Origin: Bdellovibrionales bacterium
GTDB lineage: Bacteria > Bdellovibrionota > Bdellovibrionia > Bdellovibrionales > JAUICD01
Assembly: GCA_965262715.1 (NCBI GenBank)
Contig: OZ253553.1
Coordinates: forward strand, 736,001-800,000
DNA length: 64,000 nt
Direction of reading: 5' to 3'
The stretch's first letter is position 1. Every line of letters begins with the position of its first letter. This document shows positions 257 to 62,410 of this stretch, piece by piece. Position numbers and translations under genes: made by a program. Under the pieces are notes generated by a model that saw nothing but the letters and a program-made list of their open reading frames with translations, had not been told where the DNA came from and ran no database searches.

Positions 257-404
257 TTTCCTTAACATTTTGTAAAAAAATAAAAAGTATCTTCTTACTA
301 AAAAATAAACATGCTTTTGAGGTAGTCAGCTTTTTGCTGAAGGTGTAACCCTTCAGGCTGACTACCCAAAAGTGGTCAGAGACCAGTTTATTTTTAGTGA
401 AACA
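257..404 (+). repeat. Family-1 structured intergenic element (second copy at 688-835)
   Basis: TTTCCTTAACAT...CTAAAAAATAAAC...GGTAGTCAGC-bulge-CTGAAGG(TGTAAC)CCTTCAG-GCTGACTACC...TGGTC-AGA-GACCA-GTTTATTTTTAGTGAAACA. Confidence 0.9.
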
Positions 405-491
405 ACATATTGATAAAACATCTGTCTCTCAACAGGACAACTTTAAGTTTATTGGTAATTTGTTAAAGAGTAACCAAGTTTTCAGAAACAA

Positions 492-639
492 TTTCCTTAA
501 CATCATGTAAAAAAATGAAGAGAATCTCTTTCCTAAAAGTGAACAGGTTTTTGAGACAATCAGCATTTTCTTGAAGATGTAAGTCTTCAGGCTGATTGTC
601 CAAAAATGGCCAGAGGCCAGTTCATTTTTAGGGAAACAG
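492..639 (+). repeat. Family-1 structured element (second copy at 923-1070)
   Basis: Same layout with covarying stems GACAATCAGC/GCTGATTGTC and TGGCC-AGA-GGCCA. Confidence 0.9.
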
Positions 640-1118
640 AACAACTCCTTATATTTTCATTTTAACGAGAAAAAAACTCAAGGAAATTTTCCTTAACATT
701 TTGTAAAAAAATAAAAAGTATCTTCTTACTAAAAAATAAACATGCTTTTGAGGTAGTCAGCTTTTTGCTGAAGGTGTAACCCTTCAGGCTGACTACCCAA
801 AAGTGGTCAGAGACCAGTTTATTTTTAGTGAAACAACATATTGATAAAACATCTGTCTCTCAACAGGACAACTTTAAGTTTATTGGTAATTTGTTAAAGA
901 GTAACCAAGTTTTCAGAAACAATTTCCTTAACATCATGTAAAAAAATGAAGAGAATCTCTTTCCTAAAAGTGAACAGGTTTTTGAGACAATCAGCATTTT
1001 CTTGAAGATGTAAGTCTTCAGGCTGATTGTCCAAAAATGGCCAGAGGCCAGTTCATTTTTAGGGAAACAGAACAACTCCGTATATTTTCATTTTAGCGAG
1101 AAAAAAACTCAAGAAAAA

Positions 1119-1274
1119 TTTCCTTAACATTTTGTAAAAAAAATAAAAAGTATCTTCTTACTAAAAATAAACAGATGGCAAGCCTCTCGAGGCAAGCCTC
1201 TTTGAGGATTGCCCATGTGGATAAATGAGGTAGTCAGCTTTTTGCTGAAAGTGTAAACCTTCAGGGTGACTACT
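1119..1274 (+). repeat. Family-1 element, interrupted and truncated
   Basis: 5' end and P2 hairpin present; GCCTCTCGAGGC insert at 1177-1200; 3' end missing just before IS256. Confidence 0.75.
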
Positions 1275-1311
1275 TTTCAATAAGAATCTTTAGGTTTTTA
1301 CTCTAACAGGA

Positions 1312-2718
1312 GAGGTTGTCCCATAGATCGGTGAAATTTTCTTATAGGAATTAGAAGAAAGTAGAGCTCCCGGCTATCCTAAGTGGTCTAGCCGTTGTTT
1401 ACTGTTTTTATTTTATCAGGAAATAGATAACAGAAAGGAGCTATTATGAAGAGTAGTAAGAATGGTTATTCAATTCAAGTTTTATCATCTGAGTCAAATG
1501 AGATTCGAGAGATCCTAGAGCATCGCATGAGATCAATGGTTATTAATATGATCCATGATTTCTTTGAGGATGAGTTATTATCACTGTGTGGTAAGCGTCA
1601 TGTTCGTGGTCGTGATACAAGATATTACAGAGCGGGTAGTGATTCTGGGAGTGTTCTTGCACAAGGTCAAAGGCTTCAGGTGAGGAAGCCTAGGGTGAAG
1701 GAGAAGGGAGGTTCTGATATTAAGCTGCGGTCTTATTCAGTGCTTCAAAAGTATGACATACTTTGTGATAAAGTTTTGAGTCATGCTATGAGAGGGGTAT
1801 CTTGTCGTAATTACAATGAACTTCTTGATGATATTGTAGGAGGAACGGGTCTTTCTAAGAGTACAGTGAGCAGAGTCTTTAATAAGTCATCTAGGAAGTT
1901 TCTTGAATCTTTAAATGGTCGTGATCTGAGTAAGGATAAGTTTTCATCAATTATGATTGATGGTGTTGTTTTTGGATCAAGGACAGTGGTTGTAGCTCTT
2001 GGCATCACAGTTGAAGGTAAGAAGTTAGTTCTGGGTCTTAGAGAGGGTCATACAGAGAACTGGGAAGTTTGCAAGGACTTATTAGAGAGTTTAATAGCAA
2101 GAGGTCTTTGTTCAGATAAGCCTTACCTTTTTGTAATTGATGGTAGCAGATCTTTAAGGACAGCTATTAATAGAGTTTTTGGTAAGAGAGCAGTAGTTCA
2201 ACGCTGTATTCACCACAAGGAGAGGAATGTTTTAAGTTATTTACCTCAGGAACGTCATTTAGAGTTTAAGCGTCGCTGGAAGATGGTGCATGGTTTTAAT
2301 GATTATGATTCTTCTCAGAGAGAATACAATAAGTTACTGAGTTGGTTAAGCAGGATTAATTATGCAGCATTGGCTTCACTTAAGGAAGCAAAGGAGGAGA
2401 CACTGACAGTTATCAAGTTGAAGGTATCTCCACTGCTAAGGAGAACCTTATCTTCTACAAATCCTATTGAGTCTGCCTTTTCTATTGTAAGTGATAAAGT
2501 CAGCAGGGTTAAGAACTGGAGAAGTTCTCCAGATCAGGTTATGAGATGGGCTGCTGCTTCTTTAGTTGAAGCTGAAAAGAAGTTTAGAGCTATTAAAGGG
2601 TATAAAGATTTAAATACAATGGAAGAAAATTTAAACCTATTGACTAACAATAGAAACAGGCGTAGCAAAACATCAAGCTCTGCTTAACTTCAATTTCACC
2701 GAAACGTGGGACATCCTC
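1312..2718 (+). mobile_element. IS256-family insertion sequence
   Basis: Imperfect IRs GAGGTTGTCCCATAGATCGGTGAAATT / AATTTCACCGAAACGTGGGACATCCTC around the transposase; no matching target duplication seen. Confidence 0.9.
1446..2687 (+). CDS. IS256 (Mutator) family transposase
   Basis: Motifs IMIDG, VIDGS..L..AI, QRCIHHKERN, STNPIES. Confidence 0.93.
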   Translation: MKSSKNGYSIQVLSSESNEIREILEHRMRSMVINMIHDFFEDELLSLCGKRHVRGRDTRYYRAGSDSGSVLAQGQRLQVRKPRVKEKGGSDIKLRSYSVLQKYDILCDKVLSHAMRGVSCRNYNELLDDIVGGTGLSKSTVSRVFNKSSRKFLESLNGRDLSKDKFSSIMIDGVVFGSRTVVVALGITVEGKKLVLGLREGHTENWEVCKDLLESLIARGLCSDKPYLFVIDGSRSLRTAINRVFGKRAVVQRCIHHKERNVLSYLPQERHLEFKRRWKMVHGFNDYDSSQREYNKLLSWLSRINYAALASLKEAKEETLTVIKLKVSPLLRRTLSSTNPIESAFSIVSDKVSRVKNWRSSPDQVMRWAAASLVEAEKKFRAIKGYKDLNTMEENLNLLTNNRNRRSKTSSSA

Positions 2719-2832
2719 ATAGGAAATGGAGATCGCCATTATCTTTACATGAGGATTGGGTATCTAAAGGGGTTTTTTCAAGGGATGATCTTGGGCAAAT
2801 TTCTCAATATCTTATAAACTTCACTCCCTATT
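2257..2832. repeat. 576-bp direct repeat, left copy (right copy 4783-5358), flanking IS1634
   Basis: Both copies abut the IS1634 IRs exactly; one difference seen (T2492 vs A5018). Confidence 0.93.
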
Positions 2833-4782
2833 CCTGAGTTTGGCAGTTGAAAAAATAAAGTTAAGTAATTTTAATTACTTAAAGGCACATTGAGATTTTG
2901 TGCCACTAGGTTTTTGTTTTTTAGTGTGGTTTTTAAGAAAAGTAAATTGCAGTAATGAAGTTATTCTACTTTAAGTTGTTTAGAAGGTATCTTAACTCCT
3001 ATAGCTTTAAATACATCAGCATTGTTACCGTTAATGTCTGTTCTGATCCAAATAGTTTTGTCTTTATATCTGACAGGTATAGCTCGTACTTCTTTCAGCT
3101 TTAACATAGCCTCTGCTACACTTAATGGTCTTGGCTTTATTCTCTTGCCTGTGGTCGCATTATCTTTTAATGTGATCTTTTTTTGATCTAACTTCTTAGC
3201 ACAATAAGCCTCACATAAATAAGATAGAAAACATACAACTAAATGTCCTAATATTCTCTTGTCTGTCCAGTGGAACATAGGACGTGTCTTTAATGTACCC
3301 TTCAACTCTCTAAATGAATTCTCTACCTTCCATAACTGCTTATAGTTCATTATAATCTCTTCAGAGCTTAAATCTGTATTTGTAATTATTCCAAAAAAAC
3401 CATCTGTCTTTTCTGACTCATTTATAGCTGACTTATTTAAAGTAGGCTTGCCTTTACTCTTAGGATGAGTGATGTATTTCTTATAATTACTATTAGATAA
3501 AAAAGATCTTGTGCTTATGGACTTCTTTGATAATTGAGCTTCTATCTTAGATAGAATATCTTCTCTTACTTTCTTATCTCGTTCTGCTCTCTTTCTTGAC
3601 CATGTAATTATACAACGATCATTATTATAGCTCGTCTCGTATATAGCTAAATCTTCATTTATAAATTTAAAATTCTTTATACTATATATCTCTTCATGAC
3701 GATCCTTTAATAAACCTAGCTTTAATCCTACTATAAATTCATCTCCCTTTGCTTTTAGAGATTGGAGATTCTTATTAGAAAATAAACCTCTATCTCCTAC
3801 TAATATAAATCTTCTGATCTTAAACTTCTTCTTTAACTTTGTCATAACTGAAGGTATTGTTTTACCTTCAAAGGTATTCCCGGGATAAACATCAAATCCT
3901 AAGGGCATACCTTCTGTATCTACTAAAAGTCCAAATACCACCTGGGTACAATCACTTCTTTTCTCTTTGCTATAACCAAATCTCCGAAGATTATCTAAAT
4001 CCTCACGGGTGCTCTCAAACCTCAATGTCGTTAAATCATACAAAATAACATCACACTCATTGAAAAAACTTAACTGAGACTTACCTCGCATATAAAGACT
4101 CTTCTCTATATCTTCCTTATGGTGAGATAGAATATCTAAAGAACGATAAATATCATCGATCTTAAGATCCTTCTCTAAAAAATCAGGGTAAAATAACTGT
4201 TGCCAATGTGAATATAATTTCAGCTTAGAACATGGCTCTATGAATCGATTTACAACTAATGTAAAAACTACCTTCATAAGATCAAATGCAACTTTAGGAT
4301 GTCGCTTCTGTATATCTTTTAGTAATTCATACAAACCCAATTGCTTAAATAGGGTATCTATAATAAGTAAGGGACCTAATATAAAAGTGTTCTGTACATC
4401 AATCTCTTTAGCTATTTGACTGGCAGATACAACATCTAAATGACGGCTTAGAAGAGCAAGAAGATCTTCTAGTCGAGCATCTTTAGCTCGGCCTAAAGAC
4501 ATGAGGGTTCTATGGTTACTTTTACCATCTTTCCAATAGCTTTCAGCTATGTGATAGTAAGCTTGGCCTCTGGAGTTTTTTGTCTTCTTTATGAACATAG
4601 AGATATACTAGGATAAAAATATAAAAAATCAAGTAAAATAAGTATATAATGCAGTGTATAATAATAAGTTGTTTCACTAGGACTTTTGACCAAAACTCAA
4701 ACCCAATAACCCCTAACTACTATAAATAAAGCATTCTTTAAAAAAAATGTTCCGAAAATTAAAATTAACTGCCAAACTCAGG
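2833..4782 (-). mobile_element. IS1634-family insertion sequence
   Basis: Perfect 16-bp IRs CCTGAGTTTGGCAGTT / AACTGCCAAACTCAGG. Confidence 0.93.
2961..4598 (-). CDS. IS1634 family transposase
   Basis: N-terminus MFIKKTK..Y.HIAESYWKDGK; YDLTTLRFE, FGYSKEKR, VGDRG, VENSFRELK, RPMFHW. Confidence 0.93.
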   Translation of the reverse strand: MFIKKTKNSRGQAYYHIAESYWKDGKSNHRTLMSLGRAKDARLEDLLALLSRHLDVVSASQIAKEIDVQNTFILGPLLIIDTLFKQLGLYELLKDIQKRHPKVAFDLMKVVFTLVVNRFIEPCSKLKLYSHWQQLFYPDFLEKDLKIDDIYRSLDILSHHKEDIEKSLYMRGKSQLSFFNECDVILYDLTTLRFESTREDLDNLRRFGYSKEKRSDCTQVVFGLLVDTEGMPLGFDVYPGNTFEGKTIPSVMTKLKKKFKIRRFILVGDRGLFSNKNLQSLKAKGDEFIVGLKLGLLKDRHEEIYSIKNFKFINEDLAIYETSYNNDRCIITWSRKRAERDKKVREDILSKIEAQLSKKSISTRSFLSNSNYKKYITHPKSKGKPTLNKSAINESEKTDGFFGIITNTDLSSEEIIMNYKQLWKVENSFRELKGTLKTRPMFHWTDKRILGHLVVCFLSYLCEAYCAKKLDQKKITLKDNATTGKRIKPRPLSVAEAMLKLKEVRAIPVRYKDKTIWIRTDINGNNADVFKAIGVKIPSKQLKVE

Positions 4783-5244
4783 ATTTAGAGTTTAAGCGTC
4801 GCTGGAAGATGGTGCATGGTTTTAATGATTATGATTCTTCTCAGAGAGAATACAATAAGTTACTGAGTTGGTTAAGCAGGATTAATTATGCAGCATTGGC
4901 TTCACTTAAGGAAGCAAAGGAGGAGACACTGACAGTTATCAAGTTGAAGGTATCTCCACTGCTAAGGAGAACCTTATCTTCTACAAATCCTATTGAGTCT
5001 GCCTTTTCTATTGTAAGAGATAAAGTCAGCAGGGTTAAGAACTGGAGAAGTTCTCCAGATCAGGTTATGAGATGGGCTGCTGCTTCTTTAGTTGAAGCTG
5101 AAAAGAAGTTTAGAGCTATTAAAGGGTATAAAGATTTAAATACAATGGAAGAAAATTTAAACCTATTGACTAACAATAGAAACAGGCGTAGCAAAACATC
5201 AAGCTCTGCTTAACTTCAATTTCACCGAAACGTGGGACATCCTC
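4783..5244 (+). pseudogene. Duplicated 3' fragment of the IS256 transposase plus its right IR
   Basis: Copy of 2257-2718 inside the long direct repeat. Confidence 0.92.
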
Positions 5245-5870
5245 ATAGGAAATGGAGATCGCCATTATCTTTACATGAGGATTGGGTATCTAAAGGGGTT
5301 TTTTCAAGGGATGATCTTGGGCAAATTTCTCAATATCTTATAAACTTCACTCCCTATTTTTTTAATTTATCTGAGTTCGACATAGCCAATAAAGCAATCA
5401 AGAGGATAAAACCAATTTTATATACATTTGATCAGATTTGGTCTTTGAATAAGCTTAAAGGTTTGGAGGAAAAGAAAGCAGCTTTACACAAGATTCTATT
5501 GTCAGTAAAAAAAGACTTAAAAGGAGAAGAAAAAGAGTATATAATAAATGTGTTATTAGGTATAAAGAACTATCTTCTTCAATATAACCCAGAGCTAGGT
5601 GAGGGGCTTTTAGAAGAGGTTTCAAAAGAGATCACAAAGGAATTAAGAGGAGAGAATATCATGAAAGAGCTTGATTTAACTATAGCAGAAATTGTTCGAA
5701 AAAACTGTCAAGACTGGAAACAGGAGGGAAGGCAGGAAGGCCTGCAAAAAGGAAAACAGGAGGGAAGGCAGGAAGTGATATTAAAACTACTCAAAGCTGA
5801 TATGAGTGTAGAGAAGGTATCTGAAATAACCGGTCTTTCAAAACAGGAAATCCGTAATTTTCAAGGATGA
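5245..5870 (+). pseudogene. 5'-truncated Rpn/YhgA-like (recombination-promoting nuclease family) gene
   Basis: C-terminal EGRQEGLQKGKQEGRQE repeats and MSVEKVSEITGLS HTH-like tail; the N-terminal nuclease region is replaced by IS256. Confidence 0.75.
5661..5870 (+). CDS. Candidate internally initiated small Rpn C-terminal protein (RpnS-like, 69 aa)
   Basis: In-frame ATG at 5661 preceded by AGAGGAG Shine-Dalgarno sequence. Confidence 0.5.
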   Translation: MKELDLTIAEIVRKNCQDWKQEGRQEGLQKGKQEGRQEVILKLLKADMSVEKVSEITGLSKQEIRNFQG

Positions 5871-15399: not shown

Positions 15400-15491
15400 A
15401 AGAATCCTTTTGTTGTTTTTTTATGCATTTATACTACTATTAAATATTAAGATATTTCAAGCTCTAACATATTCACTCATTTTGTATTATT

Positions 15492-15570
15492 CAGGCAGTC
15501 CGGCAACCTGGCAGTCGAGCAATTAAGTTCCCGGCAAGTTATTTGCCGGATTGCGGGTCTTCCGGGGAAA
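15492..15570. repeat. Family-3 GC-rich CCGGCAA/TTGCCGG imperfect palindrome (others at 16308-16385, 26790-26825, 29040-29120, 41088-41156, 42251-42285, 43458-43535, 51931-51976)
   Basis: Arrays of 8-9-bp units such as TCCGGCAA…TTGCCGGA and CTCCCGG in AT-rich spacers. Confidence 0.7.
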
Positions 15571-15746
15571 AATATAAGAACTCTCTACTATTGATAATAA
15601 AAGAACTTTTTGTCAAATTTTCCAAACTTGATACATCAGTATTTTAAATCATCATTTTTAGAAATATAAGTTAAGAAAAAAAGCTGATTCTCCGATGTTG
15701 TAAGAAATAATATCCAAAATATAAACCCTCATTAAGGAGAATTAAA

Positions 15747-16277: not shown

Positions 16278-16485
16278 TTAGTTATTTTACTAAAGATACT
16301 TCTAATGTTTCTGGCAATCTGACAACTGTTTTCGGCAACAGATGTCAGAGGCAGATTGCCGGTGTGCCAGACTCCCGGAGAAAATGAGAAAATATTTTTT
16401 TAAGGAATTTTCTTAAGAATGATATCACTGATAATAAGAGAACTTTTTTGGGTCGAATGCTGTCTCACTCAAAATAAACCAACCT

Positions 16486-16639
16486 CTGTTTCCCTAAAAA
16501 TGCCTCTCGCCTCTGGCGACTTTTTGGCATTGTCCCCAAACGAGCTTACACTGTTTGGTAAATAGGACAATGCCTAAAAAGCTTGAGGTATTTTTAGTAA
16601 GGCAGATACCTCTCGTTACTTAACACAATATTAGGGAAA
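16486..16639 (-). repeat. Family-1 element, inverted and divergent
   Basis: Reverse strand: P1 CTAAAAATACCTC/GAGGCATTTTTAG, P2 GGCATTGTCC/GGACAATGCC, P3 TCGCC-AGA-GGCGA. Confidence 0.85.
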
Positions 16640-16763
16640 ATCTGTCTTTAGATATTTAGTTTATTATCTCAAACTTGTTTACTTTGAGTAGAAGAGATAC
16701 TCTTTATTTCTTTATATCATATTAAGGAAATCATTTTTTTAAGAAGCTTTTCAAAAATTGCTT

Positions 16764-18808: not shown

Positions 18809-18899
18809 ATTTAATAAGCTACAAAAAAAAACCGCAAACAACAAGTCTCTTTATTGAGTATTTAAAATATAGGAATTAGATGGTAAGATGACTTAGCGA

Positions 18900-19391
18900 T
18901 TTCCTTAACATTTTGTTAAGTAACGAGGAGAGTCTCCCTCCTAAAAATGGTCAGAGGTAAGGGGTGTATTGTTTTTTTTAGAAAAAACAGAGAAAAAAAT
19001 CTTTGAAGCAATGACTTTGGATATTTATGGCAAAATCTTGTAGTCCTCGGGCTATTGCCCTGCGGAAGAACAATCTTTTGCCATAAATATCCAGTTTTAT
19101 TTTGCTATAAAGATTTAGTGTGATTTGTAAGGAGAGGAGATAGGAAATAAGGTAAGTGATTTCCTTAACATGGTGTTAAGTAATGAGGAGAGTCTCCCTC
19201 TTAAAAATGAACAAGTTTTTGAGGCAGTCAGCATTTTCTTGAAGGTGTGAACCTTCAAGCTGACTACCCAAAAGTGGTCAGAGACCAGTTTATTTTTAGG
19301 GAAACAGCATTGCCCTATTTGCCAAACGGCGTGAGCCAGTTGGGGGGCAATGCCAGAAAGTGGCCAGAGGCCAGACTATTTTTAGGGAAAA
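18900..19391 (+). repeat. Cluster of family-1 elements (deleted copy 18900-18990, full copy 19160-19307, partial copy 19307-19391)
   Basis: TTTCCTTAACA starts; P2/P3 hairpins; TTTTAGGGAAA ends. Confidence 0.85.
19019..19092. repeat. Family-5 hairpin (inverted homolog at 53120-53195)
   Basis: 17-bp arms GGATATTTATGGCAAAA/TTTTGCCATAAATATCC. Confidence 0.85.
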
Positions 19392-19392
19392 G

Positions 19393-21128: not shown

Positions 21129-21314
21129 AGTTTTATGACCTCAAAAATAAAAACGTTTAAAAAAATTAAAAGAAAATACATTCTATATTCTTTTCGTGAA
21201 ATAAGCAAAAAAAATCTTTGAAATTGGCAGGTTACAACCATTTTTAAAGCATTGAATTTATTAATCGATCCTATTTAAAAATCTTATGATTTTTATTTTA
21301 ATGACCTTATAATC

Positions 21315-22688: not shown

Positions 22689-22764
22689 GATATTATTTGT
22701 ACTATTGTGGTTGATCCAATAATCGGACATTCAAGCTAACCATCGTTCTAAAAAGTTACTATCA

Positions 22765-22872
22765 GCCTAAAAATAGACAAGTTTTTTAGGCAATCAGCAT
22801 TTTGCTGACGGTGTGAACCGTCACGCTGATTGCCCAAAAATGGTCAGAGACCAGTTCATTTTTAGTGATACA
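22765..22872 (+). repeat. Family-1 element, 5'-truncated
   Basis: GGCAATCAGC..TGACGGT-GTGA-ACCGTCA..GCTGATTGCC; TGGTC-AGA-GACCA. Confidence 0.85.
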
Positions 22873-22880
22873 GCTTTTCT

Positions 22881-23075: not shown

Positions 23076-23350
23076 TTATGTATTTTGGCATAGCTTATAG
23101 AGATAAGCTCCTAATATATCAGCTTCTTTGATAAGCTCAATATGGTTGATGATGTCTAATATGGCCTGGACTTCCCTCAATGATCCAAAAGCAATCCTAT
23201 AAAACTTTCTTCGGTCTTTTGCCGTTGATTTTGCGCTCCCTTCAGCTAAATTAAGCACAATACTTAAAGAGGCTCTTTTAATTTTAATTTATTAGATTTA
23301 TGATAAAACTGTTTAGCTAACTGATAAGTTTTAAATTTTTGCATCGTCAT
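23076..23350 (-). pseudogene. Four-helix-bundle protein (23S rRNA IVP/Avd-like), frameshifted
   Basis: MTMQKFKTYQLAKQFY… then RASLSIVLNLAEGSAK…FYRIAFGSLREVQ in another frame. Confidence 0.85.
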
Positions 23351-23399: not shown

Positions 23400-23514
23400 T
23401 AGATGGAAAAATTTAAAACAGATACTTGTTGCCAGGCACTGCCTACCGGAGTACAGTTTGCCTGATTGCCAGAAAGTCGTCAGAGGTAAGAGGCATTTTT
23501 AGTGTATAGTACGA

Positions 23515-23661
23515 TTTCCCTAACATGTTATAAAAAACGAGAGGAGTCTCCCTACTCAAAATAAACAATTTTTTGAGGCAGTTAGCGTTTTCTTGAAGAC
23601 GTGAGTCTTCAGGCTAACTGCCCAAAAATGACCAGAGGTCAGTTTATTTTGAGTGAAACAG
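23515..23661 (+). repeat. Family-1 element
   Basis: P1 ACTCAAAATAAAC/GTTTATTTTGAGT; P2 GGCAGTTAGC/GCTAACTGCC; TGAAGAC-GTGA-GTCTTCA; TGACC-AGA-GGTCA. Confidence 0.92.
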
Positions 23662-23663
23662 CC

Positions 23664-35606: not shown

Positions 35607-35687
35607 AAGCCATCTCAAAAATAACGTTCTATAACATTTAAGAAGTCGAATTGCAAAATGCAAAATATTATTTTATGAGATGGCTTC
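35606..35687. mobile_element. Family-4 MITE with TA flanks
   Basis: TA|GAAGCCATCTCA…TGAGATGGCTTC|TA. Confidence 0.75.
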
Positions 35688-35690
35688 TAG

Positions 35691-35766
35691 TCAAAATGGA
35701 CGGACTCTTTTGAAGTGCGTATGTGCACTTTAAAAGAGCCATAAGGGTCCATTTTGAGTGAGACAG
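35691..35766 (+). repeat. Divergent family-1-like hairpin
   Basis: TCAAAATGGAC/GTCCATTTTGA enclosing CTCTTTTGAAGTGC/GCACTTTAAAAGAG; ends GTGAGACAG. Confidence 0.6.
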
Positions 35767-49756: not shown

Positions 49757-50703
49757 TTAAAAATTTGTGGAATTTAAGCAGGCATGCGTTAATCCACTCT
49801 CTACATATTCTTGATGTGCTGATCCTCTAAGAACAATCCCATTACCTTCTTGCTCCAGTATCAATCCGATGGCAAAGTTGTCTCGTTCTTGACTGATTGT
49901 ATCCAATTCATTTTCTAAATTAACAAAACCTCTAAGTTTTTCTATAGCTTCTAGGTCCTCTATTCTCTGTGTTTTAAGAAATTCTTCAAAATCTTGAGGT
50001 GCAATTAAAGCAGTAGGATCTTTTTCATTATGAGTGGAGATAAAAAGATGAAATTCATCGATTTGTTCAGGTGTAAGATTCATATTATTATTGGAAATGA
50101 TATCTGTATATTCTCTCATGAGGTTTGTTGTTATTTCATTTGCTTCCAAATACAAATCCCTGTCTTCTAAGGGAACAATTCTCGTCCCACCTATTCCATT
50201 AAGGACAACATCAGGTTGTTCTACTAAAAGTTTTATTGAAATAGGATAGAGAAGATATAACAAGTCATCAGCATTTTCTTGACTCCAAAGATGTGGGACG
50301 ACATTGTGGAATGTATTAAATATTTCTTTACTTGTTTTATATTCCTCGACTTTTCCTTCAAAATCGGTTTCAGGAGGATATTCAATGCCTACCCAATCTA
50401 TTTTTTTAGATCTTAATAATGAGGTGATTTGTTGAAATTCAGATTTTTCTGAGTTGATCCTATCAGTGTAGTCATCAAGAAGCTGACTCCATGTGGTGAG
50501 TACTTCAGTTATATTAGCGCCATTGAGAACGGAAAGAAAGGTACGTACTTCTTCTTTATCTAAGTGGGGGCAAATAGGGTATAAATTTGTCTGTCATTGA
50601 TATTAGCCACTCTGATATCTCTAGAATAGGGATGAAAATAACAACTAAAAGCGTTGCTTGTAAAAAAGGTAAAGGTAAAGAACATAATATAAAAGTTTTT
50701 CAT
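49757..50703 (-). pseudogene. TraB/TIKI/ChaN-like secreted paralog 1, -1 frameshift in a C5 tract (50566-50570)
   Basis: MKNFYIMF… signal peptide; one extra C restores FAPHLD…WVGIE. Confidence 0.85.
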
Positions 50704-50814
50704 ACAAATACCTTTATAAAGGTTTCTAAATCCTTTAGAATAATTGATTTATCTATTACACCTTTTAGAACTTGTAAATAGTAAAATTAAGGTTTTTATA
50801 GAAAAAATGTTTTT

Positions 50815-51813
50815 TTATAAGTCTCTAGAATCTAAGCAGACCTGTGTTAATCCACTTTCTATATTCTGCTGATGTGCTAATCCTCTAAGAACAAGCCCAT
50901 TACCTTCTTGCTTTAATATTTCTTGCACAACAAATTCATCTCGCTTCTGATCCATTGCAATAGTTTCTAAATTCAATTCATTTTCAAAATCAACAAGATC
51001 TGTGAGTTCTTTTCTGACCTCTGGGTTTTCTATCTTATTGATTGTAAGAAATTTTTCAAGCTCTTGAAGATCAATTAAAGCAGGGGTACCTTTTTCATCA
51101 TAAAAAGTATTAATAAGATTCTCAAAAGCAGATATTTGTTCATGTGTCATGTTTATATTTTTGTTTTTGTTTATACTAATTCTTTCTTCAGCTCGTCTTG
51201 CATGTAACTCAGATAACTCGAATGTTGCCTTATACAAAGCTTCATTTTCTAAAGGAATAACTCTTATTTTATCTGTATCCGTTATATCTAAGGTAATATC
51301 ATTTGGATATTCTGCTAGAAGTTTTACCTCAACAGGAAAAAGGCGATAGAGAAAATCATGACTGTTTTCTTGAGTCCAAAGGCCTGGAATATTATTCGAA
51401 ATTGCTTTTTTAGTTTCTCTATAAGATTCTATTTGTTGTTCAATTATCTGCATATCGGAAGGAGATTCAACTCCTATCCATTCTATTTCTTGAGAAGTTA
51501 ATAAGCGACTTATTTGTCGAAAATCAGATTTTTCAAAGTTAATCGTATCAGCATGCTCAATAAGGAATTGATGCACTAAAGCCAGCTTCTCACGCTGGTG
51601 AATGTCTGAAATTGAAATATTATAAAGGGTATTGTAAATGGATTGACCTCCATCGCTGAGATCTAAATGAAAGGTGAATAAAGTATAGATCTGTCTGCCA
51701 TTGATATCAGCCACTCTGATATCTCCAGAGTATGGACGGAACCAGCAGTGATAACCAAAAGCATTACTTGTAAAAAATATAAAAGTGAGGAATATAATAT
51801 AAAGATTTTTTAT
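50815..51813 (-). CDS. Secreted paralog 2 (ATA at the start-codon position)
   Basis: GGAGG RBS then ATA-AAA-AAT-CTT in frame, homologous to the MKKFY starts of its paralogs. Confidence 0.75.
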   Translation of the reverse strand: MKNLYIIFLTFIFFTSNAFGYHCWFRPYSGDIRVADINGRQIYTLFTFHLDLSDGGQSIYNTLYNISISDIHQREKLALVHQFLIEHADTINFEKSDFRQISRLLTSQEIEWIGVESPSDMQIIEQQIESYRETKKAISNNIPGLWTQENSHDFLYRLFPVEVKLLAEYPNDITLDITDTDKIRVIPLENEALYKATFELSELHARRAEERISINKNKNINMTHEQISAFENLINTFYDEKGTPALIDLQELEKFLTINKIENPEVRKELTDLVDFENELNLETIAMDQKRDEFVVQEILKQEGNGLVLRGLAHQQNIESGLTQVCLDSRDL

Positions 51814-52011
51814 ACTAAAAGTACCTCCAAAAAATGTCTAAGTTCCTTAAAATAATAGAGGTATGTCTACTATATCTCTTAGGTATTGTCAATACAAATA
51901 TAATGAAATAATTTACAAGCTCCAAACAAACAGATTGCCAGATTTCCGGTCTCCCGGGATCCCGGAATACCGGAAGATGGCTAGATCTAGATAATGTAAC
52001 TTAAGATAAAT

Positions 52012-53335
52012 GGTGGATTCAAGTTGTAAGTGCAACTCCTTGCATAGTTGTTTAAAGCGGGTTAGAGGAATACTCTAGTCCATACGCTTTAAACACAGAA
52101 AGGAGTATTCCATGAGCTACACTCATCTAACCCAAGTTGAGAGATACCAGATTTTAGTTCTTTTGCAAAGTGGAAAATCAATAAGTTCAATTGCTACTCA
52201 GCTAGGTCGAGATAAAAGCACCATATATAGGGAATTGAATCGTAACAAAGGTTTGCGAGGTTATCGCCATCAACAAGCCCATGAAAAAGCGGTTTATCGT
52301 CTTCAAAACTCTCATAGACATATAAAGATAACACAAAAAGTCATTAATAAGCTTGAGAGGTTTCTTCGTGATCGTTTGAGTCCGGAACAGATATCCGGTT
52401 TTCTTAAACGAAAAGGTTTGTCTATAAGTCATGAGAGTATTTATCAGCATATTCTTGGAGATAAGCAATCAGGAGGAGATCTCTACAAATTTTTAAGATG
52501 TCAGAGGCAACGGAAGAAGCGATATGGTACAAGTAGATTTGATAAAAGGGGTCAGATAAAGAATAGAGTGAGCATTGATAAAAGGCCTAAGATAGTAGAT
52601 AAGAAGAGTCGGATAGGAGACTGGGAAGGTGATCTAATGATAGGTAGACATCATAAAGGAGCTTTAGTCACGCTGGTAGATAGATGCTCTAAGAAGACGA
52701 GGATCGTCAAAATAGAATCTAAGAGATCTGAAGCCGTTTTTCATGCTATTTCTAAAGCTCTTAAAGGAGAGATTGTTCATACGATCACATTAGACAATGG
52801 TAAAGAGCTTTCGTGTCATGAGAAGATCAGTGAATATACCGGATGTAAAGTTTATTTTGCACATCCTTACAATTCTTATGAGTGAGGTTTAAATGAGAAC
52901 ACAAATGGTTTAATCCGTCAGTATTTTCCAAAGAAGACAGATTTCAGAAAGATCACTCAAAAGGATGTAAAAAGAGTTGAAGTTCTTTTAAACCATCGTC
53001 CTCGAAAGAGTTTAGGATTTCTAAGTCCTAATGAGTTTCATAGACAGAAGATGGTTTGCTGAAGTCATTATTAATTCAATGTTATTTAATCCTATATAAC
53101 AGTTTTTAGTAAGTAAAGCTTGATGTTTATGGCAAAGGATCGTTCTTCCGCAGAGCTTTAGCTCGAGGACTACGAGACTTTGCCATAAATATCAAAATAC
53201 ATTCATTCAAATTAAATAATTTACAATAATCTTTTATGATAATTAAAACTTTGTTGGAATATTAATCCTAAAATGATACAACTTTTAAAAATATCTATAA
53301 ACACAAAAGAGTTGCACTTACGATTTGAAGTTACA
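52012..53335 (+). mobile_element. IS30-family insertion sequence
   Basis: 27-bp imperfect IRs (…TTCAAGTTGTAAGTGCAACTC); 3-bp AAT duplication at 52009-52011 and 53336-53338. Confidence 0.9.
52112..53062 (+). pseudogene. IS30 transposase with a nonsense codon at 52883
   Basis: GDWEGD, ITLDNGKE, SYE*GLNENTNGLIRQYFPK continuing to TGA at 53062. Confidence 0.92.
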
Positions 53336-53385
53336 AATGAATAAACAATAGACTTCTTAAAATTATAAAGATTACGTAGGATGAA

Positions 53386-54321
53386 TTATAAATTTCTAAT
53401 ATCTAAGCAGGCCTGTGTTAATCCGCCTTCTACATTTTCTTGATGTGTCGAGCCTCTAAGAACAAGCCCATTACCTTCTTGCTTCAATATTTCTTGCACA
53501 ACAAATTCATCTCTCTTCTGATCAATTATGATCTTTTCGTTCAATGAATCAACAGCAACTCTGATTTTTTCTATTAGCTCTGGGTTTTCTATTCTATGGG
53601 TTTTAAAAAACTCTTCAAGAAGTAGAGACTCTACTAGATCAAATGGCATATGATCGTTGAAAAGAAAAGTATTAAGAGCATTCTGTTGTTCAACTGTTAT
53701 GTGAGTATCATAAAGAACCTCATCGAACCTTTGATTGAAAATTATTGTTAATTCCACTCTCCTCATGCCTAGATTTTGATCTTCCAAAGGAATAACTTTT
53801 ATTCCGTTTGCCCCATCTAGAACAATATCATTTGGATATTCTGTTAGAAGTCTTATCCAAACAGAGTGAAGAAGATAAAGCAAATCATCAGTTGTTTCCT
53901 GGTTCCAAGGACCAACTGAATTAAATGATTCTTTGGCAGTTTGATAATTTTGTGCTTTTTGTTCAGTCGCCTGTATGCCCTTAGGATTAGATTCAACCCC
54001 TATCCAGTCTATTTCTTGAGAAGTTAATAGTGAGGTTATTTGCTGAAATTCAGACCTTTCAAAGTCAATTGTATCCTTGTTTTTATCAAGAAACCTATAC
54101 AGCACAATTAACCCTTCATTAGGATCAATATCTAAATTCAAAATATTGTTAAGTTCTTCAGGTTCGTTAACTAAATGAGGGGTGAATAAAGTATAAACTT
54201 GTCTGCCATTGATGTCAGCTACTCTGATATCTCCAGAATATGGGAGGAACCAGCAGTGATAACTAAATGCATTGCTGGTAAAAAACACAAGAGTGAGGAA
54301 CATAGTGTAGAAATTGTTCAT
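53386..54321 (-). CDS. Secreted paralog 3 (TraB/TIKI/ChaN-like)
   Basis: LFTPH, WIGVE, KRDEF, LVLRGSTH. Confidence 0.85.
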   Translation of the reverse strand: MNNFYTMFLTLVFFTSNAFSYHCWFLPYSGDIRVADINGRQVYTLFTPHLVNEPEELNNILNLDIDPNEGLIVLYRFLDKNKDTIDFERSEFQQITSLLTSQEIDWIGVESNPKGIQATEQKAQNYQTAKESFNSVGPWNQETTDDLLYLLHSVWIRLLTEYPNDIVLDGANGIKVIPLEDQNLGMRRVELTIIFNQRFDEVLYDTHITVEQQNALNTFLFNDHMPFDLVESLLLEEFFKTHRIENPELIEKIRVAVDSLNEKIIIDQKRDEFVVQEILKQEGNGLVLRGSTHQENVEGGLTQACLDIRNL

Positions 54322-54434
54322 GTCAAAATATCTCTGGAAAGCTCCTAAACCTCTTCTTAGTATATTTATATCTTTTAAAACTTGTAAATACGGTCATAAT
54401 AAAATTAAGAGGTTTTTATAGAAAAAATGCTTTT

Positions 54435-55361
54435 CTAAAGGTTTTTAGAATTTAAACAGACCTGTGTTAGTCCACTTTCCACATTCTGTTGATGTGCCGA
54501 TCCTCTAAGGACAATTCCATTGCCTTCTTGCCTTAATATTTTTTGCACAACAAACTCATCTCGCTCTTGATGAGCTGTAATAGTCTCATTGAGTAAGTCG
54601 ATATAAGTTCTGATTTTGTTTCTGGTCTCTGGGTCTTCTATTCCATGAGTTTTAAAAAAATCCTCAGTATCTGAAGAATCAATTAAAATAGATGTATCTG
54701 ATATAGGATTAGAAAGAAAATCAACAAGGGCAGAGGTCTGCGGGCCTGTTAGATTAATATTATCATGAATAAATTTTATACTTAGTTGTGCAATCATTGT
54801 TAATGTCCCAGCTCTTGTATACAAAGTTTCATTTTCTAGAGGAATAATTCTTATTCTTCGATTCAGAACAGCATCACTTAAATGTTCTGTTAGAAATCTT
54901 AACCAAAAAGGGTAAAGAAGATAAAGCAGATCATCAGTCTTCTCTGGATTCCATAGGCCATTGCTTATTTGGTTAAATGATTCTTTAGTATTTTGATAAG
55001 ATTGCACTACTCGTTCAATTGTTTGTAGATTGGGATAATATTCAACTCCTACCCAGTCTATTTCTTGAGAAGTCAACAGTGAGGTGATTTGTTGAAAGTC
55101 GGATCTTTCAGAGTTAATTCTGCTAGAATAGTTATCCATAAATCTATTTGTTTTTTCAATGATGTCAGTACCTGAGTTTAAAATATCTTGAAATTCATCA
55201 GCTTTCCCCTTTGAGTGGGAGCCAAATAAAATGTAAATTTGTCTGCCATTGATATCAACCATTTTGATATCTTCAGAATACGAAAGGAACTGACAGTAAT
55301 AGCCAGAGGCATTGCTGGTAAGAAACATAAGAGTGAGGAACATAGTATAGAAATTGTTCAT
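54435..55361 (-). CDS. Secreted paralog 4
   Basis: Start MNNFY at 55361; LFGSH, WVGVE, ERDEF, IVLRGSAH. Confidence 0.85.
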   Translation of the reverse strand: MNNFYTMFLTLMFLTSNASGYYCQFLSYSEDIKMVDINGRQIYILFGSHSKGKADEFQDILNSGTDIIEKTNRFMDNYSSRINSERSDFQQITSLLTSQEIDWVGVEYYPNLQTIERVVQSYQNTKESFNQISNGLWNPEKTDDLLYLLYPFWLRFLTEHLSDAVLNRRIRIIPLENETLYTRAGTLTMIAQLSIKFIHDNINLTGPQTSALVDFLSNPISDTSILIDSSDTEDFFKTHGIEDPETRNKIRTYIDLLNETITAHQERDEFVVQKILRQEGNGIVLRGSAHQQNVESGLTQVCLNSKNL

Positions 55362-55639
55362 GTCAAAATGTCTCTGGAAAGTTCCTAAACCTTCTCCTAG
55401 TATATCTAGATGTTTTAGAGCTTGTAAACACAAATATGATGAAATAAGAGTTTTTATAGAAAAAATGATTTTTTCTATAGAACCGGAAAAATAAAAACTT
55501 AATAAACATTGTCAGAGATTCATAACTTTATCTAACATACAATGCATATCAGTGTTCATCTTCGTCTATAAACCTTTGTGCCTATTACCTCTAATTTCTT
55601 GTATAAAAGGGTTATCTTCCAAGATGAGCCTGCTTTTTT

Positions 55640-55814
55640 TTCACTAAAATGCATCTGACGTCTCGAGGTGAGCCTCTCGAGGTGAGCCTCTGGTCACTTT
55701 CTGGCAGTAAGTCCGACGGTTCTTACGGCCGTCGGCAAATAGCTTACTGCCTAGGAAGGCTAATGCATTTTAGTAGGGAGGATATTCTTGTATCTTAACA
55801 CAATATTAGGGAAA
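55640..55814 (-). repeat. Family-1 element with two 14-bp inserts in P3
   Basis: P1 ACTAAAATGCAT/ATGCATTTTAGT; GGCAGTAAG/CTTACTGCC; CCGACGG..GTAA..CCGTCGG. Confidence 0.85.
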
Positions 55815-55937
55815 GTGTAGATATTGAGACATAGGTAACAGGTAGGTTAAATTTATAAATATAGGATATAGTTTATTTTTTATTGAAAGTTTTTCAAGTA
55901 GGAATGAACTTACTTGTACTTGTAAAGGTGTTTTGGT

Positions 55938-56885
55938 ATGAAAAAATTTTATATTATATTCTTCACCTTTGTGTTTTTCACAGGCAATGCCTTTGGTTAT
56001 CATTGTTGGTTCCGCCCATATTCTGGAGATATTAGAGTTGCTGGTATTAATGGCAGACTAATCTATACTTTATTCACTTTTCACCTATCTAATGAATACA
56101 AAGATTTTTACAATACTTTAAACTTAGACATTTCTATAACCGATAAGATAGCTCTATGGCATGATTTTCTTAATAAACATGCTGATACAATTAACTCTGA
56201 AAGCTCTGATTTCCTACAAATAAGCTCACTGTTAGCATCTGAAAAAATCGATTGGATTGGAATTGAACATTTCTCTGACACACAGGAACTTAAAAATCAA
56301 GTGCAACGGTATCGATTAGATAAAGAAGGGTTCGATTCATATAGTGATATCTCAATATTTTGGAATGAAGAAAATACTGATGATTTGCTCTATCTTCTTC
56401 ACCCTGTTGAGATAAAACTTCTAGCAGAATATCCAAATAATATCACTCTTGATCGAACAGATAAAATAAGAATCATTCCTCTAGAAAATAGAGACTTACA
56501 ACTGAGATCAAGTGAATTAATAGTAGACTTAATGCAAAAAATTGAAGAGATGTCGGATACGGGTCACATAACAGATGAACAAGAAGTTGCTTTTATTGAT
56601 CTTGTCTTTGATGATGAAAAAAATCCCTCCAGTTTAATTGATTCTCAAGATGTTGAAGAATTTTTTACAAACTTTAGAATAGAAGATTCAGAGATTATAA
56701 CAAAGCTTAGAGAGTTTATTGATTTGCAAAATGCATTTGCTATAACTCATCAAGAGCGAGATGACTTTGCTGTTCAATCTATACTAAACCAAAAAGGTAA
56801 TGGAATTGTTCTTAGAGGTATAAGTCATAAAGAAAGTGTAGAAAATGGATTAACACAGGTCTGTGTAGATTCTGGAAGTTTATAA
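55938..56885 (+). CDS. Secreted paralog 5 (inverted orientation)
   Basis: LFTFH, WIGIE, ERDDF, IVLRGISH. Confidence 0.85.
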   Translation: MKKFYIIFFTFVFFTGNAFGYHCWFRPYSGDIRVAGINGRLIYTLFTFHLSNEYKDFYNTLNLDISITDKIALWHDFLNKHADTINSESSDFLQISSLLASEKIDWIGIEHFSDTQELKNQVQRYRLDKEGFDSYSDISIFWNEENTDDLLYLLHPVEIKLLAEYPNNITLDRTDKIRIIPLENRDLQLRSSELIVDLMQKIEEMSDTGHITDEQEVAFIDLVFDDEKNPSSLIDSQDVEEFFTNFRIEDSEIITKLREFIDLQNAFAITHQERDDFAVQSILNQKGNGIVLRGISHKESVENGLTQVCVDSGSL

Positions 56886-56994
56886 GCTATTCCTTATAAA
56901 CTCTCAACATTCATAGAACATCTATGAAGCCATCTCAAAAATGCTACTAGAGATAACAGTTTTAGAAAAAACACCAGTTTTGCATTATACAAAC

Positions 56995-57149
56995 TCACTC
57001 AAAATAAACCAGCCTCTCGAGGCTAGCCTCTGGCTGTTTTTGGGCAATCAGCGTGACGGTTAACACCATCAACAAAATGCTGATTGTCTCAAAAACCCGT
57101 TTATTTTAGTAGGGAGGATCTCTTCGTTCTTTTACATCATATTAAGGAA
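56995..57149 (-). repeat. Family-1 element with one 14-bp insert
   Basis: Reverse strand GACAATCAGC/GCTGATTGCC, AAAATAAAC/GTTTATTTT. Confidence 0.85.
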
Positions 57150-57422
57150 AATTTCCTTCATTCTGTTTTACTCAAAATGAATAGCCTTTCTAGGCAATGG
57201 TCTAATGGCAAGAATAAACTGTAACCTATGTCTCAATATGTAACAGATCCCAGAAAAAAGAATGCTTAACTAGATTATGAGCCCTTATTATGAATATTCC
57301 ATGTTATAAGGTGACAGCCGGTTGCCTTTTGTTATAAGAGTATGGCGTATATTTTGTAAATTTTACATTTGATTTTATACGAGCTTTTGTTGCATCAATA
57401 TTAGTAGGTATATAGAGGTTAG

Positions 57423-57576
57423 AGAGTTATGGCAGGCTTCTGGAATAGGCCTAGGCCAGTGCCTCAGGAGATAAAGATTTTATAAAATACTTTATTCTAT
57501 AATAGGTTTTTAAAATAATAGAAATAAAAGGCGCGGGGGATGCCTGCCGCCTATGGAAGAAGCCTGCCATAACTCT
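57423..57576 (-). repeat. Family-2 long hairpin element
   Basis: 19-bp arms AGAGTTATGGCAGGCTTCT; core inverted relative to 26435. Confidence 0.9.
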
Positions 57577-60695: not shown

Positions 60696-60728
60696 ATTCT
60701 TTTCTCTTCACATGAAAATTTATAATTT

Positions 60729-60810
60729 CATAAGTTCAAATAGCAAGTGCAGCTTTTTTATGATTATAGATACTTTTAAAAAGTGTATAATACTAGGATC
60801 AAGATTCCAA
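60729..60810 (-). mobile_element. Degenerate solo IS30-type right end
   Basis: Reverse complement aligns with 53254-53335. Confidence 0.75.
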
Positions 60811-61008
60811 TAGGAAAGTTAATTGTCATGAGAGGTTATTGTAAGTTATTTGAGCTGATAGATCTTCTAAAAAAAACTTAATAATTTCTTTAAATTTAGC
60901 TTCTAAAATTCTTGAATGAACAAAACACCTATTTTTCATAGTTATATAGATTAATTTTGGAAGTCAATTTAAAGTGCCATGAATTTAATGTAAGTAATAA
61001 TAAATGCT

Positions 61009-61986
61009 TTATAAGCCTTCTGGATAGTCACCCCAGCAGTGACTATTATTTTGTGCATTCTCTTCTACTCTTAAACAACTGTAATCATCATTTGCTGTAA
61101 TAGATTGAATAGATAGACCCTGCATAGCTTCAGGAATTTCAACTACGACTGGTTTAAGGCTTTCATTGATGTTGTTGGAAACTCCTAATTGTCCTTTTTG
61201 ATTGTCTCCCCAACAAACAACCTTCTTTCTACTTTCCAATAAACCACAACTATGTTTTTTGCCAAGAGCGAGTGAGATAATACCATTGAGTCTATTATCT
61301 TCTAAAATCTCATCTGTATGACATTCATTTGTATTATCTTCTTTGACAACATAATTTGCATTTTGAGCTTGTTTATGAGAGGACTTACAGTTATTTCCTA
61401 ACTGTCCATGCTCATTGCTACCCCAACATTGTACATATTTTTTGGTTCCTGTAATACGACAGGAATGATTTATATCATTATTTAAAGAATTGTTTAATCG
61501 TAAGGAGCAACACGCACCAGGCTCAGTATCATAAATTTGGGATACTGGTACATTTACATCAACTGTATAAAATTCAGGATTGTTGCAATGGTGGTCTCTG
61601 CCAAGTATGACACCTGATGTTTCTAGGTGAGTCCTAAGTTTTTTCTCACATGAAGGAAGGCATTGTCCTTCAACTTCTTTGTAATCTGGTAGTGTTTGAT
61701 TCTCAGAGCAGCCTATGTTTCTGGTTGATAAAGATGAAAAGCCTATAAGGTTTGATTGCGCAGATGTGGTCGTTGTAGTAGATGCAGAAGTCGTGGAAGT
61801 TGTAGAAGAAGAAATTGTAGAGGCAGTTGTGGTAGATGAAGGAGGAGGAGAAGAAGAATCTAATGTTTTTTTAGCTTCCCAGCTACAACCTGCAAGAGAG
61901 CAAAGCAAAATAAGAGAAAGAGGTAGTGATAAAAAATGATTGAAAAGCTGATAAGCAGACGCTTTAGGTTTTTTTTGATTATTCAT
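61009..61986 (-). CDS. RCC1-repeat lipoprotein with Ser/Thr linker
   Basis: LAGC lipobox; CWGSNEHGQLG, CWGDNQKGQLG. Confidence 0.85.
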   Translation of the reverse strand: MNNQKKPKASAYQLFNHFLSLPLSLILLCSLAGCSWEAKKTLDSSSPPPSSTTTASTISSSTTSTTSASTTTTTSAQSNLIGFSSLSTRNIGCSENQTLPDYKEVEGQCLPSCEKKLRTHLETSGVILGRDHHCNNPEFYTVDVNVPVSQIYDTEPGACCSLRLNNSLNNDINHSCRITGTKKYVQCWGSNEHGQLGNNCKSSHKQAQNANYVVKEDNTNECHTDEILEDNRLNGIISLALGKKHSCGLLESRKKVVCWGDNQKGQLGVSNNINESLKPVVVEIPEAMQGLSIQSITANDDYSCLRVEENAQNNSHCWGDYPEGL

Positions 61987-62248
61987 AACTCATCTCTTTT
62001 TTAGCAAAATTAGGTATTTTATGGATTATTATTTTATTCCTTATATTTGAATCGTAATTTTACATAAATATCTTTATATTTTTTGCTTAAAGATATTTTT
62101 CAAAGTTGTTTTCTCGACTTATATCGTGTGATAGATAACAAGCTTTCGTCTTGCTCTTCTTTGATTTTTTACTAAGGAGGTAATTTGATATTTTAAGTTG
62201 GTATTATAAGGATTTGAGGTGATTTATTAAGGAGTGCAAAAAAAAGGA

Positions 62249-62410
62249 TTTCCTTAACATTATGTAAAGAAAGAAGGGTATCTTCCTCCTAAAGATAGTC
62301 AAGCTTTCTAGAGGGCAGGCTACTTGCTGACAGTGCAAACTGCCTGCGCTTACTGTCAGAAAGTTGCCAGAGGCTCGCCTCGAGAGGCGAGATGCAGTTT
62401 AGGGAAACAG
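62249..62410 (+). repeat. Family-1 element with one 14-bp insert
   Basis: TTTCCTTAACAT…CAGT-GCAA-ACTG…TTTAGGGAAACAG. Confidence 0.75.

Follow-up and report, generated by a model that had tools for sequence, protein, structure and literature searches.

Copies and distribution of the repeat

The window, a stretch of 64,000 nucleotides from the genome of a Bdellovibrionales bacterium (contig OZ253553.1, positions 736,001 to 800,000), contains 11 near-full copies of a non-coding repeat of ~145 nt together with partial ones (Table 1), detected with a covariance model at E values of 1e-16 to 4e-34. Four of these copies, the pairs 257/688 and 492/923, resulted from one tandem duplication. Genome-wide the model returned 459 matches, equivalent to 2.1% of the focal genome, with the left end intact in 408 of them. 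A sequence-only reading of the window had listed ~14 copies; those copies were real, and all 16 stem strings quoted for them were present at the copies named, but the number was too low, and the element is confirmed as much commoner than first noted. The repeat is not an assembly artefact: short-read contigs from 4 runs (2 studies) included flanks and copy ends with 0 differences. Perfectly palindromic relatives of the repeat also exist.

Table 1. Copies of the repeat and related features, by position in the window
Feature	Position	Strand
Full copy with GAAA end; left part (43 nt) conserved in sequence, then three-way junction	257..402	+
Full copy	492..636	+
Full copy, duplicate of 257 copy	688..833	+
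Full copy, duplicate of 492 copy	923..1067	+
431-bp tandem duplication, 426/431 identical	194..1055	+
Copy with ~50-nt insert past P1 5' strand; truncated after P2, shortly before IS256-family element	1119..1273	+
Outer copy, 5' half	16666..16730	-
Full copy nested within outer copy	16489..16639	-
26-nt 3' remnant of outer copy, beginning at P3 hot spot	16463..16488	-
Left part only	18900..18954	+
Full copy	19160..19304	+
3' remnant (P2, P3, P1 3' strand) immediately 3' of full copy	19305..19390	+
Junction core without left part	22763..22870	+
Broken four-helix-bundle gene (PF05635) flanked by copies	23115..23282	-
3' remnant	23454..23504	+
Full copy	23515..23658	+
Short-core relative with P1 closing helix and right end, within another repeat; absent from earlier list	35657..35763	+
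Full copy, P3 hairpins duplicated	55639..55814	-
Full copy, one extra P3 hairpin, in palindromic relative	56994..57150	-
Full copy, one extra P3 hairpin	62249..62407	+

Among 151 genomes of the order, the repeat was limited to one lineage of uncultured bacteria, in which a congeneric single-contig genome (90% complete) carried 962 left ends. A phylum-wide pattern scan gave matches in 2 of 401 genomes, the second through one isolated match in G005, which the covariance model left unscored. Pattern scans yielded 0 matches in viral sequences and, in metagenomes, 0 and then 2 chance matches, neither scored by the model; phages and plasmids likewise gave no match. Genome G004 was rejected as a third host because its 9 left ends sit on three contigs that look mis-binned, these being ~82-94% identical to and collinear with the focal genome in long syntenic blocks, whereas sampled main contigs were 65-73% identical. 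The expectation that no known RNA family would match held: an Rfam scan of the window at gathering score returned tRNA only, and E-value mode applied to 18800-23700 and to 13 copies gave nothing close to the gathering score. A literature search limited to main texts, with most subscription papers outside its reach, found no description of the repeat family.

Copies lay near gene 3' ends and rarely in open reading frames (7 of 227 clusters), favouring convergent gaps (55/207) over divergent ones (48/321), and their orientation relative to neighbouring genes was near even (72 vs 52). For shared neighbours the count was 16 of 95, compared with a baseline of 270/1825. The focal genome is rich in IS elements, and genes for PF05635 four-helix-bundle proteins were frequent neighbours and targets, 12 of 19 such loci having a copy within 420 bp. 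This protein was rejected as a partner and treated as a target because it occurs widely, in 58 of the 151 genomes and on repeat-free G004 contigs.

Conserved structure

The repeat consists of a first part of ~43 nt, conserved in sequence only, and a three-way junction of ~105 nt that covaries strongly; two small hairpins in the left part showed no covariation. In an alignment of 45 copies, 96.4% of cells were paired (34-50% with slid partners) and double changes occurred in 31 of 40 pairs, with 341 double-change cells as against 110 ± 10 in shuffles (0/500 shuffles as high), bearing out the earlier claim that the stems covary. The fold z-score was about -7.6 as RNA and about -10 as DNA (25 copies). 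The multi-stem fold proposed from the sequence was right as to these stems but overlooked a lower P2 helix, a bulged A kept in 106 of 107 parsed copies, and a 3-nt purine-rich junction. An alternative pairing of the ends, TTTCCYTAA with TTAGKGAAA, did not hold up: the ends agreed at 8-10 of 12 positions in 81/109 copies with no covariation between them, and across 107 copies the right-end position that is either G or T tracked its P1 partner (A:T 58, C:G 27, A:G 10, C:T 9) while the left-end C was fixed.

GNRA was the commonest loop class, accounting for 47 of 83 four-base loops in the 107 parsed focal-genome copies; in the congeneric genome 176 of 181 loops were GNNA, made up of 122 GNRA and 54 GNYA. 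Since the loop finder used for the latter was noisy on the focal genome (30/94 'other'), focal counts come from the separate 107-copy parse. The GNRA loops noted earlier were thus the majority class within a broader GNNA pattern. With the third position free, the loops do not mark RNA, as had been assumed; GNNA is a family of stable DNA tetraloops by the account in PMC10085684, and single-stranded DNA fits the loops at least as well as RNA. A loose hammerhead ribozyme motif (CUGANGA/GAAA) occurred on the plus strand of 10 and the minus strand of 29 out of 109 copies; it fell within paired P2b and was rejected.

G.T pairs exceeded A.C in the focal genome (70 vs 20), indicating a single folding strand, and did so whichever way copies faced relative to the gene upstream (35:13 and 35:7). 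A first parse of the congeneric genome gave G.T 31 vs A.C 55, a reversal that arose from tied registers next to the bulge; without the bulge-adjacent pair the counts were 31:6 there and 35:12 in the focal genome. Linkage was high at paired sites (r2 0.74) and low at unpaired ones (0.058), and four gametes were present in 2686 of 3455 unpaired site pairs. As judged from the alignments, helix alleles recombine within the family to form a mosaic, in which the compensatory changes are not independent per-copy events; ordinary gene conversion could explain this mosaic.

Insertion sites and exchange between copies

Three copies on sister-lineage contigs had no counterpart at orthologous focal-genome sites. 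In a separate comparison all 3 testable syntenic gaps (from 77 loci) were empty in the focal genome. The element is mobile. Among 216 distinct right flanks, C (0.71), A (0.81) and a purine (0.87) were followed by background composition. Junctions were compared in 39 filled/empty pairs, many of which descend from one composite and whose empty sites are paralogous rather than true: the right junction had no extra bases in 15 and 4-15 unmatched bases in 21, a left leader of 5-40 nt was present in 35, and target change at insertion ranged from -24 to +69 nt. An A-rich bias left of the element reached background by about -25, and identical leaders preceded copies in unrelated targets; one locus, L226, combined a 23-nt duplication with an 8-nt leader. 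No fixed 2-9 bp target duplication emerged from 162 flank pairs at 20 offsets (weak cells only, e.g. 5 vs 1). An inverted-target 'guide' leader fitted just one site, and a left-junction CT rule failed when inspected.

Insertion of copies into one another was concentrated 26-27 nt from the right end (22/33 and 49/87 remnants). Orthologous copies between rpsQ and rplN differed by 26 nt, including 6 double changes, and their spacer differed at 4/56 positions; the 60-nt inner module of the sister copy exactly equalled that of two non-orthologous focal-genome copies. Three properties are newly described: polar junctions, with a precise right end before N-A-R and a sloppy left end carrying a leader and variable loss or duplication of target; insertion of copies in one another; and in-place swapping of inner modules. 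Elements that move as lagging-strand single-stranded DNA are expected to show replichore bias, and none was seen (120/227, p 0.43, with a noisy skew). Reads over 15400-27000 revealed no empty allele and no clear circle joint, the joints listed coming from other copies.

Candidate mobilising enzymes

No Y1 enzyme, reverse transcriptase (RT), IS110 recombinase or matching IS end common to both hosts was found. The sole Y1 gene of the focal genome is IS200-type with its own hairpins and has no copy within 1.7 kb; the search of the congeneric genome for Y1 found none, RAYT-like queries from G002 found nothing further, and a GTAG or CGTC tag preceded P1 in 0/109 copies. The focal genome has an intact group II intron-type RT gene, with no copy within 3 kb, and a second RT with one copy ~440 bp off; RVT_1 gave no match and 0 candidates in the congeneric genome. 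The suggested RAYT or RT partner flanked by copies was therefore not borne out in either host. No IS110 recombinase was detected in the focal genome by a search that recovered 6/14 controls, and no IS91 Y2 transposase by one whose control was likewise blank. IS ends matching the repeat were absent from the listed multicopy transposase clusters (IS3 and IS30 ends covered in part), and none of 342 left ends belonged to an ORF-carrying copy.

The Rpn nuclease (PF04754) is no more than a weak candidate mobiliser: it occurred in 4/41 genomes including both hosts, yet with 16 matches in repeat-free G003; 10/43 genes lay near copies, and it is described as non-specific in PMC5350276. Rejected were the tyrosine recombinases, of which each host has an XerD-like one and one that is a lone catalytic domain, neither framed by copies, and a TnpB-domain match lying in a 1343-aa frame rather than in a TnpB-sized gene.

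Discussion

The element is not an Rfam family, a fixed-duplication MITE or a RAYT-linked REPIN, and the proposal of a multicopy, fold-conserving mobile element that folds as a single strand is supported. We give about an even chance to its being a non-autonomous selfish repeat, an orphan copy-in element recognised through the single-stranded fold of its top strand, DNA likelier than RNA. An as-yet-unnamed enzyme would bind the fold, with the 43-nt left part perhaps serving as a sequence-read site; copying would start at a fixed point 4-6 nt beyond the P1 foot, at target N-A-R, and synthesis would pass through the element into variable donor flank, the leader, before returning to the target at short homology, leaving target bases deleted, intact or duplicated. 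Insertion into an existing copy may yield nested stacks, or may replace that copy's inner module in situ; duplications may seed tandem arrays, and the fold would be selected at the copying step, not in host mRNAs. Polar junctions, loops, the one-strand G.T excess, module swaps and empty sites count for copy-in; the missing enzyme match, the lack of replichore bias, extra right-junction bases and the prevalence of GNRA count against it.

SINEs have a precise 3' and a ragged 5' junction with variable duplication, and target-primed reverse transcription produces such polarity. The repeat shares these junction features, so that a SINE-like retro-element, its top-strand RNA reverse transcribed at a nicked target, could also account for the G.T excess and the GNRA majority in a genome that encodes two RTs. 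We nevertheless consider it unlikely: no RT is common to the hosts, despite the many left ends in the congeneric genome, the intact intron-type gene stands apart from copies, 5' truncation is rare, the GNYA loops fit DNA, and a sigma-70 promoter match is absent at 18800-19450. Distinctly improbable is mobilisation of the REPIN/IS200 type by a Y1 HUH enzyme since lost, unassembled or too diverged for detection, because the one Y1 found has its own hairpins and no copy close by, the tags are missing and precise strand transfer should not give target loss or duplication; the single-strand fold, extrahelical base and set distance from helix foot to right end would suit it, as would self-insertion clusters and arrays with flank, which are REPIN-like by the account in PMC3116915.

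Movement by a DDE transposase acting on imperfect 12-bp terminal repeats, as in a classical MITE, is already disfavoured and very unlikely: the partial agreement of the ends and the IS-rich genome invite it, but fixed duplications are missing, as are cognate IS ends among the listed transposase clusters, the right-end variable base tracks P1 rather than the left end, and relatives with a short core retain P1 and the right end but have no left end. It is also very unlikely that the repeats are mRNA elements benefiting the host, or hairpins in which template-switch repair produced the covariation without selection. Placement near gene 3' ends and in convergent gaps, and the palindromic relatives, can be read that way, but orientation is near even, the G.T excess is independent of it, the bulge persists, and positions are not conserved beyond baseline.

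Among known systems, IS91 and Helitron rolling-circle elements are precise at one end, show read-through at the opposite end and make no fixed duplication. The repeat resembles them in all three and differs in its variable target loss or duplication and in the Y2 search, blank like its control. Rickettsia palindromic elements, Correia and RUP are, like the present repeat, dispersed in repeat-rich genomes; from Rickettsia palindromic elements and MITEs it differs in its rarity in ORFs and lack of cognate IS ends. These elements are also alike in size, according to PMC3184786. That source describes bcr1 of the Bacillus cereus group, a transcribed element flanked by 5-bp direct repeats, which resembles ours in length (~150 nt), in a branched fold kept by compensatory changes and in positions non-conserved among relatives; the fixed duplication is absent here. 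REPINs mobilised by RAYT, as described by Bertels & Rainey 2011 (PMC3116915), are likewise small, extragenic, folded as a single strand and present in hundreds of copies, with clusters formed by insertion into or beside copies and tandem units with flank, whereas here there is a three-way junction, no doublet of tagged REPs and no RAYT found, helix sequences vary freely and junctions are polar. IS200/IS605 elements insert 3' of a conserved left tetranucleotide (PMC6006769); they share the reading of structure rather than sequence and a cut at a set distance from the helix foot, as would apply to the repeat, whose conserved target is on the right and whose left junction is ragged.

A doubtful but real possibility is that the repeat represents a class of mobile DNA in bacteria that has so far gone unrecognised. 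Here a three-way-junction template (single-stranded DNA, or RNA as in a bacterial SINE) would be copied into targets, starting at one precise end, by an enzyme belonging to none of the known Y1, Y2, RT, IS110 and cognate-DDE families; this enzyme would also rewrite existing copies. Several small bacterial repeats, such as the CGTC REPs, have no assigned mobiliser by the account in PMC3733652, and this repeat offers data usually missing for them: two single-contig genomes holding hundreds of copies, empty sites in a sister lineage and a junction signature. As a caution, strong covariation and GNRA-looking loops need not imply a structured RNA. With a short list of excluded enzymes and close relatives free of the repeat, its mobiliser could be hunted by comparing the two host proteomes, and a fold-guided copy-in reaction that demands roughly three bases of target would also merit attention as an insertion tool.

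Anatomy, covariation and range of the element

The host genome (G000; a single contig of 2.94 Mb with 33.6% G+C) contained plentiful IS elements and other repeats. An iterated profile of the dispersed element gave 459 matches on both strands, 311 of them near full length, which grouped into 227 clusters and took up about 61 kb (2.1%) of the genome; mean identity among 109 distinct copies of 140-151 nt was 71%. From 5' to 3', the element comprised a left part of ~43 nt, P1, a 3-nt purine-rich junction, a 6-bp lower P2, a bulged A (present in 106/107 parsed copies), a 10-bp P2a, a 5-6-nt bulge (102/107), P2b, P3 with an AGA loop (103/107), the 3' strand of P1 and GAAA. The stem strings quoted in the sequence-only reading were all found in the window, and the covariation it described was borne out, with double changes at 31 of 40 pairs among 45 copies chosen for diversity and far lower values in all controls. 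The left ~43 nt was conserved in sequence without covariation, and the alternative pairing proposed for the two ends gained no covariation support.

The family is real and belongs, as a new form, with small dispersed structured repeats; a literature search found no description of it. REPINs and bcr1 work most like the element, yet it lacks their defining features (PMC3116915, PMC3184786, PMC6006769, PMC3733652, PMC5350276).

Of 151 genomes searched in the order, three matched the covariance model: G000, a congeneric relative (G001) with 962 left ends, and a bin (G004) with 9 left ends on three contigs, which were taken as a mis-binned sister lineage of G000 because they are collinear with it at about 82-94% identity. 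G004 contigs C1, C4 and C11 resemble mis-binned contigs of a G000 sister species, ribosomal protein operon included. Viral, metagenome, phage and plasmid searches returned no match or chance matches only, and we treat the family as restricted to one genus among the genomes searched.

Folding strand and polymer

In the helices of G000 copies, G.T exceeded A.C by 117:41 (70:20 with P2b left out), and by 27 vs 16 when distinct position classes were counted, the copies being related and the events therefore not independent. The excess held whichever way copies lay relative to the upstream gene and on each putative replichore, so the top strand folds regardless of host transcription. A first parse of the relative's copies gave 31:55, a result traced to a register tie beside the bulge; dropping that one pair gave 31:6 in the relative and 35:12 in G000.

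Triloops of the A-N-A type are stable in DNA. Four-base loops in G000 (n = 83) included 47 GNRA, 62 GNNA and 77 NNNA, and those of the relative (n = 181) 122 GNRA and 54 GNYA, so the GNRA-type loop noted earlier is common; its value as a mark of RNA falls away, since stable DNA motifs include GNNA tetraloops and GNA triloops (PMC10085684). The loop evidence tilts, without proof, toward single-stranded DNA over RNA, and the element is probably not a structured RNA gene.

Mobility, junctions and rewriting

Five sister-lineage regions were aligned with G000. Two held three copies without a counterpart in G000, one of which came with a leader (extra bases at the left junction) about 17-20 nt long and lacked a duplication; in the other three the site was common and copy number or make-up differed. 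All three gaps testable from the more distant relative were empty in G000. No target duplication of fixed length was found in the flanks of G000 copies. Among 39 non-redundant filled/empty pairs drawn from 249 full copies within G000, in which paralogous repeats served as the empty sites and several pairs have an ancestor in common, the right end had no extra base in 15, a left leader of 5-40 nt was present in 35, and the target had anything between 24 nt duplicated and 69 nt lost. The right flank read C/A/purine and then background, and left-flank base bias faded over about 25 nt. Long duplications with a spacer occurred at 21/186 G000 copies (0.8 expected), mostly in tandem arrays, and at 7/168 (3.2 expected) in the relative's set, which pools two sources of loci, leaves out three named foreign loci and covers only part of that genome. 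Insertion of copy into copy was mainly at the P3 loop (22/33 and 49/87).

Orthologous copies between rpsQ and rplN differed between G000 and the sister at 26/145 positions, and six of the changes were compensatory doubles; differences numbered 4/56 in the spacer next to the copy and 30/300 in the flank. The sister copy's 60-nt inner module matched two G000 copies elsewhere exactly, and family-wide, paired sites were locked (r2 0.74) and other sites nearly free (0.058). The covariation thus reflects a stock of helix alleles that are reshuffled between copies, with the fold as the constraint.

Neighbouring repeats and genes

Other features recorded are listed below. The Rpn/YhgA-like family is large in G000 (43 ORFs), several members having a sigma-54-like motif upstream.

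Coordinates of neighbouring repeats and genes
Location	Feature	Remarks
window 1312-5213	IS256-family element	broken by IS1634-like element; 3' part duplicated
window 5232-5870	Rpn-like C-terminal fragment	follows IS256-family element; labelled by clustering, without Pfam match
window 19002-19102, 53111-53211	second dispersed hairpin family, about 180 nt	in many cases immediately precedes an element left end
window 22917-23017, 26440-26600, 57445-57545	third repeat	also in 5' region of IS5-like element, from which it is possibly derived
window 23115-23282	four-helix-bundle (PF05635) genes	19 loci genome-wide, many dispersed copies; each gene bordered by short tandem-like repeats, with a hairpin covering the ribosome site; units resemble a separate mobile module
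window 49757-56885	exported protein of ~315 aa, five paralogues	no match in Pfam; the group includes a truncated IS30-like gene
G000:C1:387304-387470, 858481-861229	diverged ~120-nt core	closing helix and right end as in element; inner sequence unrelated
G000:C1:482268, 490607	element copies in array of 28-nt direct repeats	each between one whole and one near-whole repeat; array resembles a CRISPR array

Mechanism

Dispersal, turnover, a one-strand fold, polar junctions, self-targeting and module exchange are counted as demonstrated for the element. We put at even odds a target-primed copying of the folded top strand with a DNA template, in which copying would be primed at the target, begin at the element's right end and finish when it switches back onto the target through short homology. 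The same process with an RNA template, to which the loops lend less favour, appears unlikely; three reverse transcriptase matches were present in G000, none framed by element copies.

A Y1 (IS200/RAYT-type HUH) enzyme that has been lost or hidden is rather less probable again: G000 has one IS200-type gene, with hairpins of its own and not framed by copies, and neither Y1 nor reverse transcriptase families were found in the relative. IS110 was not found in G000, and IS91 gave no match there, its control also being blank and the search hence uninformative. No candidate gene enclosed by an element copy was found, and genes adjoining copies in both genomes (16/95) were at chance level. Three possible mobilisers (Rpn, the four-helix-bundle protein and tyrosine recombinases) were considered and dropped or left as weak candidates. 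Because both genomes are rated 90-93% complete and named families alone were searched, absence of a mobilising enzyme is not proven. A DDE MITE is improbable, the IS ends shown for G000 giving no match to those of the element, and a host function or repair artefact ranks lowest. The main interest of the element lies in its orphan mechanism.
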